From: Octopus sinensis
Taxonomy: Eukaryota
Length of the DNA: 64,000 nucleotides
Reading direction: 5' to 3'
Assembly: GCF_006345805.1 (NCBI RefSeq)
Contig: NC_043008.1
Location: 76,632,001 to 76,696,000 of the forward strand
The position numbers and the translations under genes were made by a program. Below the pieces are notes generated by a model that was given only the letters and a program-made list of their open reading frames with translations, was not told the DNA's origin and ran no database searches. Below, piece after piece: positions 11,951 to 60,943 of the stretch. Position 1 is the first letter of the stretch. The number at the start of each line of letters is the position of its first letter.

Positions 11951-12273
11951 CATATATATATATATACACATACTTATATAGACATAGACATATATACATG
12001 CATATATACATATAGATACATATATACGTACATATAAGGCGCGCACATACATATACACACATACATACACACACACATATGTATACACACACACACAAAC
12101 ATATATATATATATATATAAAATAAATATAAGAGAGTGGTCACTATATGGCTCACTCTAGCACCAGTTAATCCAAAAGGTTTCAACCACAAAAATACATG
12201 TTTCCCATGAAAGTCAGTACGATTGTTAGCTCACACGGACAGGGCAAATAAAAAATAACAAAAATACAGATTA

Positions 12274-12355
12274 TTTTGGGACAATTGTTTCGCTATTAAT
12301 GAATTAAATGTAATTTTACTTACAAAAAAATCCACTTGTAGCTCGTCAGCCAAAA
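12274..12355 (-). ncRNA. Type I hammerhead ribozyme (intact core)
   Basis: Reverse complement of 12869-12950. Confidence 0.85.
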
Positions 12356-12868
12356 CTATCTGGATGAAATCCACTCAATCACACGCCAGATTTTACCATA
12401 ACGATAAATACGCGTGTGGTTCAATTGATTACATCCGACGTTATAATTCAAATGCCCCAACTAACAGCGCGCCAAACTTTCACGGAAAACAAAGACTGCA
12501 TTTAGAAATAAATGCAGCATAATTATAATTAATTAATAAGGGTGAGAGAATTAGATACTAATTTAATAGTATATCTATTCAACACCAAGTGGCCTAGTGC
12601 TCCGAGAAACCTGGATTATTATAATATTTTATAATATATTATAATATTTTTGCAAAATAAATATAAGAGAGTGGTCACTATATGGCTCACTCTAGCACCA
12701 GTTAATCCAAAAGGTTTCAACCACAAAATTAAATGTTTCCCATGAAAGTCAGTACGCTGTTAGTTGGGGCATTTGAATTATAACGTCGGATGTAATCAAT
12801 TGAACCACACGCGTATTTATCATTATGGTAAAATCTGGCGTGTGATTGAGTGGATTTCATCCAGATAG

Positions 12869-12950
12869 TTTTGGCTGACGAGCTACAAGTGGATTTTTTT
12901 GTAAGTAAAATTACATTTAATTCATTAATAGCGAAACAATTGTCCCAAAA
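12869..12950 (+). ncRNA. Type I hammerhead ribozyme (intact core)
   Basis: ttttgg-CTGACGA-gcta..AT-rich loop..tagc-GAAA-caattg-TC-ccaaaa. It has a 6-bp stem I, a 4-bp stem II, a palindromic minimal stem III and a GUC cleavage triplet. Confidence 0.88.
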
Positions 12951-13246
12951 TAATCTGTATTTTTGTTATTTTTTATTTGCCCTGTCCGTGTGAGCTAACA
13001 ATCGTACTGACTTTCATGGGAAACATGTATTTTTGTGGTTGAAACCTTTTGGATTAACTGGTGCTAGAGTGAGCCATATAGTGACCACTCTCTTATATTT
13101 ATTTTGTAAAAATATTATATATTATAAAATATTATAATAATCCAGGTTTCTCGGAGCACTAGGCCACTTGGTGTTGAATAGATATACTATTAAATTAGTA
13201 TCTAATTCTCTCACCCTTATTAATTAATTATATATATATATAGCGC

Positions 13247-14107: not shown

Positions 14108-16085
14108 TAGTTTTATTTTTATAGCGTGCTTTCACTTCACTACCGAGCGCAGCTCTGTGTGCCTTGGGTATGTGCTGTGATTTGTTGTGATGCTCTGATG
14201 GTTATTGTATGGAAAGTGTTCTGCGTAGGGTGTGTGCAGTGCCTAGTAGTGCAATTTTCTGTATGTTATACGTGTTTGTAAGTCCTGGTGTTTATTTTTA
14301 TGTATTTGTCTGAATATTTTTTTATCATGCCTAATGCAACTCCTATGATAGGAATTGTTTCTGTTTTCAGATTCCGCATTCTAGTTACCTCTATTTCCAG
14401 GTCTTTGTATTTTGAAAGTTTCTCCATTTCTTTTAGAGACACGTTGTCATCTGCCGGTATTGATACATCAATTAGAAAGCATTTTTTACTTCATGATCTC
14501 TGACAACTATATCTGGTCTGTTGGCCTTAATTTCTCTATCTGTGTGTATCGGCATATCCCAGAGTATGGTTGCTTTCTCGTTTTCTGTGACCTTTTCTGG
14601 TGTGTGCCTATACCATCTTTTTTCTGTTGTTATTCCATAATGTTGGCATTGCTTCCGGTGTATGTAGGTTCCAACTCTGTCATGTCTGTGAATATATTCC
14701 TTCTTAGCCAGGACTGGGCAGCCAGAGATAATATGATTTATTGTTTCTTGTCCATCATCACATATTCTGCAGTTACTTGTTATATTTCTTTTCATTACAT
14801 GTTTTTGGTAATTTCTGGTGTGGAGGCTTTGGTCTTGTGCTGCAATTAAAAATCCCTCTGTCTCTGCTTTGAGTCCTGAGCTTCTCAACCATTGCTGGGA
14901 TTTTTCTTTGTCTATTTCTTTTGCGTTTAGTTTAGTCCAGTATTTACCATGAAAGAGCTTTTCTGGCCATCGTGTTATCATGGTTCGTTGCTGTTCTATT
15001 TTTAGTTTGGATTTCATTTGTTTTATAGCTTTTGTTGTTTCTTCTTCTTCTTCTTCTTCTTCTTCTTCTTCTTCTTCTTCTTCTTCTTCTTCTTCTTCTT
15101 CTTCTTCTTCTTCTTCTTCTTCTTCTTCTTCATGTTTATTAGGTGGTATGATTTCTTGTTTGTATTTGTCAGCTTCCTTAAATACTGAGAACAGTTTTTT
15201 GTTTTGCTCGTGTTTTGCCGCTATTTGTATCAGTTTCCCTTCCTTCTGAAGTAGATATTTTTGCAGTCCTATGGTGGTTATTCTATAGTAGTTTTCCAGC
15301 TTTATAAGGCCTCTATCACCTTCTATACGTTGTATATATAGTCTTTCTATGTCAAATTTTGGGTGATGCATCCTAGATCCTGTCAGTATTTTTCTTGTTT
15401 TCCTATCTATTTTGGTCAGTTCATTTAGTGTCCAGTTAAGGATATTGTAGCTGTAACTTATAACTGGGACAGCTAAAGTGTTAATACCTATTATCTTGTT
15501 TTTAGCATTGAGCTCTGTTTTTAGTATTGATCTAACTCGTCTATAATATTCTTTTTTTTATTTTCTCTTTCATTTGTGTGTGTTGTGTCTTATCTAGTTC
15601 ATGGATTCCTAAGTATTTGTAAGTTTGGCTTTGGTCTAATTCTTTTATTTCATTGGTTTTATCTAGTGTGATGTTGTTACTCTTAACTAGTTTTCCTCTT
15701 TTCATGGTTACTTTGGCGCATTTTTCTAATCCAAATTTCATATCTATTTCTTTGGTAAATCCATGAACTGTCTTTAATAGTGTTTCCAGCTGTTTGTCAT
15801 TTACAGCGTATAGTTTTAGGTCATCCATAAATAAAAGGTGGCTGATCGTTTTGCCGTAACATTTATATCCGCATCCAGTTCTATTTAGCATATCAGATAG
15901 AGGTGACAGTGCCAAGCAGAAAAGGAGTCGGGAGAGCGTGTCTCCCTGGAATATTCCTCTTCTAATGGGGATGGCGTTGGTTTTCATGAGTCCCTTTTTT
16001 GTTTGTAGCTGTAGCACTGTTTGCCATTTATTCATAGTGCCCTATGAATTTTATAATTGTTGGTGCTACTTTGTTAATGGCTAGT
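14102..16085 (-). mobile_element. 5'-truncated Dong/R4-clade LINE (RT, CCHC and restriction-like endonuclease)
   Basis: ORF 15541-16035 has RRGIFQGDTLS and HLLFMDDLKLY. ORF 14472-15371 has CRIC..ETINHIISGC..YIHRHD..RPDIVV. It is flanked on both sides by (TAA)n, the known Dong target. Confidence 0.92.
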
Positions 16086-59254: not shown

Positions 59255-59520
59255 AGAGAGAAGACCACAAGTTTGAGCAAAAGACACAATACAGAATATC
59301 TGAGAACAAAGTACATTGTCACATATCTGAACACATGTCACAATATCATAAATTTGAGAGCACGTCACAATGTCACATATCTGAGAACACAATACAATGT
59401 CATATATCTGAGAATATGTCGCATTGTCTCATATTTGAGAACACATCATAGTTTATATCTGAGAATACACCTCAATGTCACACCCTTGAGAACAGTGCGC
59501 AGTGTTACATATTTGAGGAC
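59255..59520. repeat. Degenerate minisatellite with a unit of about 27 bp
   Basis: CAATGTCACATAT(C/T)TGAGAACAC recurs throughout. Confidence 0.85.
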
Positions 59521-59856
59521 AAAGGTGGGACGAATTGAAATGTTGCTGGGGTCAACTTTATATTTCATCCTTTAGGGTTGGAAAATAAGTACCAGTTGGG
59601 CAATGGGGCCGATGTAATTGACTTGCCCCTCCCCACTGAAATTGCTGGATTCGTGCCAAAATTTGAAGCTATTATTATAACTCAGGTAAAATGATTTCCC
59701 ACTGTTTAGTTATTATACATACATATATATATATATATATGCATGTATGTATATGTATTATACATACATACATGCATACATACATACATATATATATATA
59801 CATATATATATGTGTATATATATATAGGTATATATATATGCATATATATATATATG

Positions 59857-59908
<52 letters not shown>

Positions 59909-60206
59909 TATATATATGTGTATGCATATATATATATATAATATATATATATATATATTATATATGTATATATATGTATGTATGTATATATACATATATA
60001 TATATATGTATGTATATGTATATATATATATATATGTATGTATGTATATATAATATTTTATAATTATATACATAATTATAACAAGGAATCGGCTTTGCGC
60101 CTCACTACACACTGCAAGAAATATACGCTAAAGACCCTATTGCCACCTAAAAATCTCAGAGAATAACACACTATATTGTAGGCAAGCAAAAGAAAGGTTG
60201 GTTAAC

Positions 60207-60275
60207 TCAATACACGATCGAGTTTCAAGCTTAAAGTAAAATTTTAATATTTCACTTACTGCTCTCATCAGCGGA
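60207..60275 (-). ncRNA. Type I hammerhead ribozyme (core intact, stem I decayed)
   Basis: tccg-CTGATGA-gagc..gctt-GAAA-ctcgatcgtg-TA-ttga. Confidence 0.7.
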
Positions 60276-60559
60276 CGCATTCCATAAGATAAATTTACAA
60301 GTATTTCAAAATATGCATGCGATCGGCGACATCGCTTGACCAATATCCATCCACACTCGTAAAAATATACCGCCAAGTATAATTCACATCCCTCTTTTGT
60401 ACCCACGTGTAGTGTGTTAAGATCTAGACCGCAGTAAAAGCCATTTTCATTCATAGAGTAAATTTATTCAAATATTAATTATAATAAACAGGTAAAATCA
60501 ATAGGTCGCCGATCGCATGCATTTTTTAAAACACTGGTAAATTTATCCTATGGAATACG

Positions 60560-60633
60560 TCCGTTGATGAGAGCAGTAAGGGAAATATTTAAATTAAATT
60601 TTACTTTAAGATTGAAACTCTATCGTGTACGGA
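60560..60633 (+). ncRNA. Type I hammerhead ribozyme (C3-to-U core mutation)
   Basis: tccg-TTGATGA-gagc..gatt-GAAA-ctctatcgtg-TA-cgga. Confidence 0.65.
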
Positions 60634-60862
60634 GTTAACCAGCCTTGTTGCCTACAATATAGTGTGTTGTTCTCGGAGATTTTCAGGTGGTAATATGGGC
60701 TTTAGCGTCTATTTCTTGCAGTGCGTGGTGAGACGTAAAGCCAATCCCTTGTAATTATGTATATAATTATAAAATATTTTGTAAAATTTACCTATGAGGC
60801 TTTTATTTCCGCACTGACTACCTGCTAAATTTATTACTGATTTTACCCTTTTATTTAAAATA

Positions 60863-60943
<81 letters not shown>

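Follow-up and report, generated by a model that had tools for sequence, protein, structure and literature searches.

Non-LTR retrozymes, tandem hammerhead repeats without coding capacity, give rise to RNA circles and have been proposed to be non-autonomous Penelope derivatives moved by Penelope-like elements (PMC7229834; bioRxiv 10.64898/2026.07.22.740005). The parts of these two papers drawn on here call retrozyme mobilisation unresolved and describe the repeats without inverted arms or fixed paired ends. Insertions of Penelope-like elements, as described in the portions used of PMC8557442 and PMC3846280, consist of a partial tandem with an adjacent inverted 5'-truncated copy, are biased toward (TA)n, and carry a tail of 30-40 bp that is often confined to one end. 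The origin of these tandem and inverted structures is called unresolved in the same portion of PMC8557442. The purified Poseidon protein, a predicted dimer, cuts and extends both strands of its target, with two internal RNA start sites delimiting the tail and ribozyme cleavage unneeded, according to the sections used of PMC11167929. Metazoan type I hammerheads with a palindromic helix III act as dimers, and truncated copies of Penelope account for opposite-strand hammerhead pairs 100-700 bp apart (Cervera and de la Pena 2014, PMC4209133, in part).

The locus compared with these systems occupies positions 60052-60855 of the window, the whole 64,000-nucleotide stretch of Octopus sinensis DNA that was analysed (contig NC_043008.1). 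It is a decayed, ORF-less, two-armed repeat of a 520-bp unit, likely inserted into (TA)n in a single event by a trans-acting reverse transcriptase-endonuclease of Penelope-like, probably Neptune, type. Arms of this family end at two sites: site A, at unit positions 432-477 and mostly 463-469, and site B, at unit positions 8-50, both windows being drawn from the census data themselves. Apart from its longer tail, the combination of A and B in one insertion reproduces the footprint already known for Penelope-like insertions. The features of the locus, and one element used for comparison, are as follows.

59717-60051, no strand: left TA-type microsatellite (target)
60052-60503, minus strand: left arm, unit positions 1 to 464, without the tail; its 3' end is site A and adjoins (TA)n
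60201-60282, minus strand: type I hammerhead motif, core intact, stem I partly decayed; predicted cut after 60211
60483-60503, minus strand: unit positions 1-21 in the left arm, repeated at the right arm's outer end (60835-60855)
60503-60505, no strand: 5'-to-5' arm junction with a single base between the arms and no microhomology seen at this locus
60505-60855, plus strand: right arm, covering unit positions 173-520 and continuing through 1-21; its 3' end is site B
60553-60639, plus strand: type I hammerhead motif with a C3-to-U change (60564), a stem II mismatch and an intact stem I; predicted cut after 60629
60779-60855, plus strand: tail of 77 nt, from site A to site B, in the right arm only
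60866-60940, no strand: right (TA)n microsatellite (target)
12101-13232, no strand: sister element of a young 534-bp hammerhead family, with an A-arm and B-arm layout (comparison)

The two arms stand head to head, and 60052-60330 aligns with the inverted 60505-60778 at 84.9% over 284 columns; counted over 286 gap-free positions, the arms are 89.5% alike. The left arm is 87.6% and the right arm 83.6% identical to the family majority; unit positions 22-172 occur in the A arm alone and 465-520 in the B arm alone. The 3' end of each arm runs into (TA)n. An original prediction, made from the letters of the window, had described diverged inverted arms, each with a hammerhead, TA flanks and a monomer of roughly 0.5 kb, all of which is confirmed: both sides are TA-type microsatellite and the unit measures 520 bp. 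Its description of the architecture as tandem plus inverted holds for the inversion and fails for the tandem, given the unit positions covered by each arm. It had also placed an inverted copy of the element's 3' terminus in a spacer; the copy exists but spans about 21 nt (60483-60503 against 60835-60855) and is there because the left arm of the permuted unit starts at that point, while the spacer is the inner left arm. The 15% divergence of the arms upholds the argument made against an assembly artefact. No further copy of the element was found elsewhere in the window, and BLAST returned no significant match between it and the 12.5-kb element.

The minus-strand hammerhead carries CUGAUGA at 60271-60265 and GAAA..GUA at 60226-60211, and its mismatched stem I forms 3/5 pairs, as expected from a copy predicted to have an intact core and a decayed stem I. 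The plus-strand motif has UUGAUGA at 60564-60570 and GAAA..GUA at 60614-60629. Its C3-to-U change had been correctly called, its stem I, called intact, forms 4/5 pairs by an ungapped count, and its stem II mismatch had gone unlisted. A relaxed descriptor finds both motifs at the locus, compared with two single hits in 500 dinucleotide shuffles. Rfam searches of the window and of 60100-60800, at E up to 10, returned no hammerhead, just microsatellite-driven miRNA noise, so the ribozyme call rests on motif and covariation. When folded as single strands, the two local ribozymes do no better than shuffled sequences (z of -1.5 and -0.1).

Across 45 aligned copies, 87.1% of cells in the named type I structure are paired, compared with 25-47% in slid controls. 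Two-sided changes number 47 and the covariation score is 0.235; none of 500 shuffles reaches any of the three values, although relatedness (shared ancestry of subfamilies) inflates such counts. The base-pair swaps fall in helix I, II and III columns and come from different subfamilies. Conservation reaches 94% in the 12 core columns, compared with 84% in the others, and both core halves are kept in 26 of the 45 copies; the core conservation whose absence would have refuted the original prediction is thus present, as is the stem covariation that it proposed to look for. On this sequence evidence, the hammerhead of the 520-bp unit is predicted to self-cleave. Loop III, a segment of helix III, has a self-complementarity of 0.83, compared with 0.46 when shuffled, in the 36/45 copies that parsed, and the palindromic copies include short CGCG and UGCA forms. 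This palindromic loop matches hammerheads reported to cleave as dimers, and the family shares with them a short helix III, a self-complementary loop and a long helix II, as far as the part of PMC4209133 drawn on goes. The opposite-strand pair here, about 300 bp apart, also resembles the pairs of that paper, as described in the same part. Compared with the hammerheads in that part of PMC4209133, most copies of the 520-bp family have a longer palindrome, of 10 nt; the family's helix II is AU-rich and extended, and a G-U pair closes it beside the core.

The majority unit closes on itself and is circularly permuted. It contains no ORF, its longest stop-free frame being 86 codons, and has a GC content of 33.7%. 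Its circular fold reaches -143.7 kcal/mol, compared with -106.3 +/- 6.7 in 30 shuffles. Other genomic copies exist, as predicted: the searches gave 580, 174, 721 and 684 first-look candidates (580-721 per search in all but one), 40 scored in each, and exact motif searches added 5 and 29 matches. The census sample comprises 97 distinct loci and 168 arms out of several hundred candidates, leaving out repeated fetches and L007 and L029, which are near-identical duplicates of L004 and L024. Its loci are best-scoring or pattern hits, not random ones, and the pattern set guarantees one B arm. Arms of at least 150 nt (n=123) are 71-94% identical to the majority, with a median of 86%. With these identities, and a best non-self match of 87% over full length in a search with a near-majority copy, the family is old; it appears extinct, with an apparently inert copy at 60052-60855.

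Twenty-two of the 168 arms exceed one unit, which gives the unit its head-to-tail organisation. None crosses the cleavage site twice and there is no dimer in the 97 loci, the longest arm being 746 nt or 1.43 units; a circular template is thus putative for this family. Five long arms (L117, L120, L123, L277 and L284) start at unit 363-370 and have unrelated upstream flanks. This start holds both for long arms ending at A and for those ending at B, and it may mark a stop site or the fixed 5' end of an RNA.

The family resembles the non-LTR retrozymes of PMC7229834 and bioRxiv 10.64898/2026.07.22.740005, as described in the parts used, in that its unit encodes no protein, is low in GC, repeats head to tail and has a single type I hammerhead, and in the highly self-paired circle predicted by folding. 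Unlike those retrozymes, it has no dimer or multimer in any census locus. The unit is longer than the 150-450 bp of Cervera and de la Pena 2020 (PMC7229834, in part) and within the 51-972 bp of Li, Clavereau and Pollet 2026 (bioRxiv 10.64898/2026.07.22.740005, in part). Target-site duplications of non-LTR retrozymes exceed 4 bp when present; both flanks of 60052-60855 are microsatellite. With Penelope-like insertions, specifically those of Neptune as described in the sources used in part, the family shares a partial tandem, a head-to-head inverted 5'-truncated copy, a (TA)n target, a one-sided tail, and a hammerhead near the 3' end. It differs from them in having no ORF and a tail of 61-103 nt in place of the 30-40 published in those parts, and from Penelope-like elements in that the whole element is the repeat unit. 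Lacking both a dimer and an ORF, it is filed as a relic non-autonomous Penelope-like family of retrozyme type, not as an active retrozyme.

Of the 168 3' ends of arms, 71 lie at A, 66 at B and 31 elsewhere, so that 137/168 are at A or B, and 109 of these 137 touch simple repeats. Simple repeats are touched by 118/168 3' ends overall, compared with 19/168 5' ends. The 5' ends are scattered over the unit, and no pile-up is seen at the cleavage site (7/168 in unit 281-300). An adjacent inverted arm is present in 55/97 loci, every one in 5'-to-5' orientation, and absent from the other 42. Where both ends of a pair lie at A or B, the combination is A+B in 38/38 cases, with a probability of about 3e-12 if ends were independent; the remaining 17 inverted loci comprise ten A + other, six B + other and one other + other. 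Junction overlaps of 2-6 nt occur in 27/55 inverted loci. Tails span 61-103 nt in the 29 A+B pairs that were checked for nesting. A search that covered few subscription journals and no bioRxiv supplements found no paper counting A+B pairing for retrozymes.

The two arms at 60052-60855 resemble each other more than they resemble almost any of the 33 arms compared from other loci: their mutual identity is matched or beaten by 1/33 and 0/33 other-locus arms, and of eight derived variants common to both, as many are shared by 4/33 other arms. These near-best mutual matches indicate that the divergence of the arms reflects age, not separate origin. Among 22 overlapping loci, shared derived variants beat every outside arm in only eight, and the rest are uninformative or unremarkable; these arm comparisons were computed on a 503-bp majority. 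The original prediction of a shared insertion mechanism in place of a one-off rearrangement is supported by the inverted arms in 55/97 loci here and in 20/27 loci of the 12.5-kb family. It had left that mechanism unnamed, and the recurrent architecture matches the published Penelope-like footprint.

In the proposed mechanism, the enzyme would cut both strands of a TA repeat, and cDNA synthesis would then be primed by the two freed DNA ends at internal RNA sites, by one end at A and by its partner at B. The two cDNAs, each halted early at a point unrelated to the other's, would finally be joined 5'-to-5'. Longer arrays of the old 520-bp family may since have collapsed, a step that carries less weight. 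The strict A+B rule with non-nested arms favours two independent priming events per insertion over fold-back copying, and it defines exact RNA sites for an existing in vitro assay. The value of the inert copy at 60052-60855 is as a record of this mechanism. A broader proposal, to which we give a little less than even credence, is that Penelope-type integration is obligate asymmetric double priming, in which each half of an enzyme dimer begins cDNA at its own fixed site on a single ribozyme-made RNA circle, working from one of the two ends of the cut TA repeat. The RNA would then set the spacing of the sites, and retrozyme families of different ages within one genome would form a time series in which arrays collapse to less than 1.5 units while the A+B signature persists. 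The A-to-B spacing is 35-40 nt in the autonomous element, 60-100 nt in the 520-bp family and about 125 nt in the sister family.

That sister family, found at 12.5 kb in the window, tests more cleanly whether both arms arrive in one event. It has a 534-bp unit with an intact core, and its copies in arrays are 98-99% identical (loci L126-L145), with a single haplotype common to both arms. All 17 of its scorable pairs are A+B, its tail is about 125 nt, and its arms reach 9.4 units. Units differ by 3.6 substitutions per kb between opposite arms (81 pairs), 4.1 within the same arm (225 pairs) and 9.1 between loci (7606 pairs). When a variant occurs in more than one locus, it is almost always fixed throughout an insertion, and at L129 one private variant is fixed in 5/5 units across both arms; two loci fall short of full fixation, with a variant in 3/4 and 5/6 units. 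Such fixation is expected from copying one unit-length template, most simply a circle. A sequencing-run search with this family gave no RNA run among the matches listed. Neptune-type copies directly adjoin its arrays or lie no more than 2 kb away (L134:170-5590; L178, L179), and at L134 an array and a Neptune-type copy stand tail-to-tail in one TA tract.

A genome search for GIY-YIG proteins gave 5029 candidates, of which 150 were scored. Two genomic families have frames of 775-781 residues with RVT_1, a C-terminal GIY-YIG, a DKG motif and a CxxxxCxxC linker, the last tied to Neptune and its microsatellite bias in the part used of PMC8557442. In the younger of the two, (TA)n is reached at two end points separated by about 35-40 nt. 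A young Neptune-type family with a 781-residue RT + GIY-YIG frame is present in many near-identical copies (L176:1636-6460; L180) and has a 35-40-nt tail into (TA)n; the 781-residue frame is preceded by one of 479 residues that matches no Pfam family clearly. The search for a partner of the 520-bp family took in GIY-YIG matches, 20 long loci and a tail-motif pattern. Neither 50 GIY-YIG loci nor the sequence flanking family loci yielded an autonomous element with the unit's tail or ribozyme, no homology of the unit to an autonomous pseudo-LTR was seen in those 50 loci (from the 5029 candidates), and the 520-bp tail is absent from both RT + GIY-YIG families. No Penelope protein match was found in the window. 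Penelope remnants near L029, L064 and L249 were rejected as partners because they are separate insertions, and a tail-like match at L168 because it belongs to another non-coding family. The partner is accordingly assigned by type, as a probable Neptune-type enzyme.

We lean toward a ribozyme-made circle, not a linear transcript of more than one unit, as the template of the 520-bp family. The same Penelope-type enzyme and the same double priming could instead have used a linear partial-tandem transcript, with no circle and no need for cleavage, and this is a serious though less probable alternative; the template would then be a pseudo-LTR that stands free of its autonomous element, the latter being lost or not yet found. 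The absence of any arm crossing the cleavage site twice fits it, as do the five long arms that start at unit 363-370, as a fixed RNA 5' end might give, and the dispensability of ribozyme cleavage for insertion in vitro, as reported in part of PMC11167929. The unit, however, closes on itself with a strongly self-paired circular fold, and the young sister family reaches its 9.4 units with variants fixed array-wide. Collapsed old arrays would likewise leave fewer than 1.5 units, and the ceiling of 1.43 units fits either history. A single cDNA or antisense RNA that folds back and primes itself, an endonuclease trimming one end to produce the tail, has been proposed for rotifer Penelope elements from junction palindromes (PMC3846280, in part). 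It is an unlikely account here: the A arm does lie within the B arm in 10/29 pairs, and starts are at most 16 nt apart in 9/29, but in 17/29 neither arm contains the other. The 60052-60855 arms, each of which holds unit positions that the other lacks, belong to these 17, which simple fold-back copying does not explain, and paired-arm starts in the young family spread from 6 to 262 nt apart. Fold-back is thus largely refuted for mutually non-nested pairs, while it could explain the minority with adjacent starts.

Mobilisation of the RNA by a LINE or other non-Penelope reverse transcriptase, the inversion being ordinary twin priming, is very unlikely, even with LINE remnants abundant and the partner search described above finding no Penelope element. 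One such remnant lies at window 14475-16041 (minus strand), where two frames match RVT_1 (E 8e-13) and zf-RVT. L1 twin priming leaves adjacent, non-overlapping pieces. The arms of the 520-bp family, by contrast, overlap in unit coordinates, and the family has fixed internal start sites on a permuted unit and no poly(A) end. The one-sided tail is moreover described as unique to Penelope-like elements in the portion used of PMC11167929. Long inverted arms and TA flanks may at first sight suggest a MITE, a DNA transposon with terminal inverted repeats; a one-off rearrangement and an assembly artefact are further readings. All of these are highly improbable and are refuted by the locus census: both the lengths of the arms and their inner ends vary from locus to locus, the outer ends are unequal (A versus B) where a MITE has fixed terminal inverted repeats with equal ones, and the 42 loci without an adjacent inverted arm and the 15% divergence of the arms here also count against these readings.

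The match at L168, 73% over 138 nt, is the sole tail match to the 520-bp family and marks a third hammerhead family, likewise non-coding and about 600 bp long, for which there are 1646 first-look candidates. In this family (L168:2606-2873; L239:1475-2200; L225-L254), the A-to-B tail is 68-76% like that of the 520-bp family, the helix I flanks also resemble those of the 520-bp family, and the two-arm layout recurs in the loci read. Contigs of four sequencing runs were compared with 60075-60860: two gave no cover and two partial cover, with the centre unbridged and 60507-60614 uncovered, a result that speaks neither for nor against the arrangement. The contigs pile up on the site-A stretch 60750-60803 with several different loose ends, which suggests that the site-A motif is common to further families, and their summed depth is not a copy number. 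Small hammerhead-like motifs of other sequence occur at L183:6935-7120 and at L195:1415 and 4667, one of them between short direct repeats. A 27-bp minisatellite of about nine diverged copies lies at window 59261-59521.
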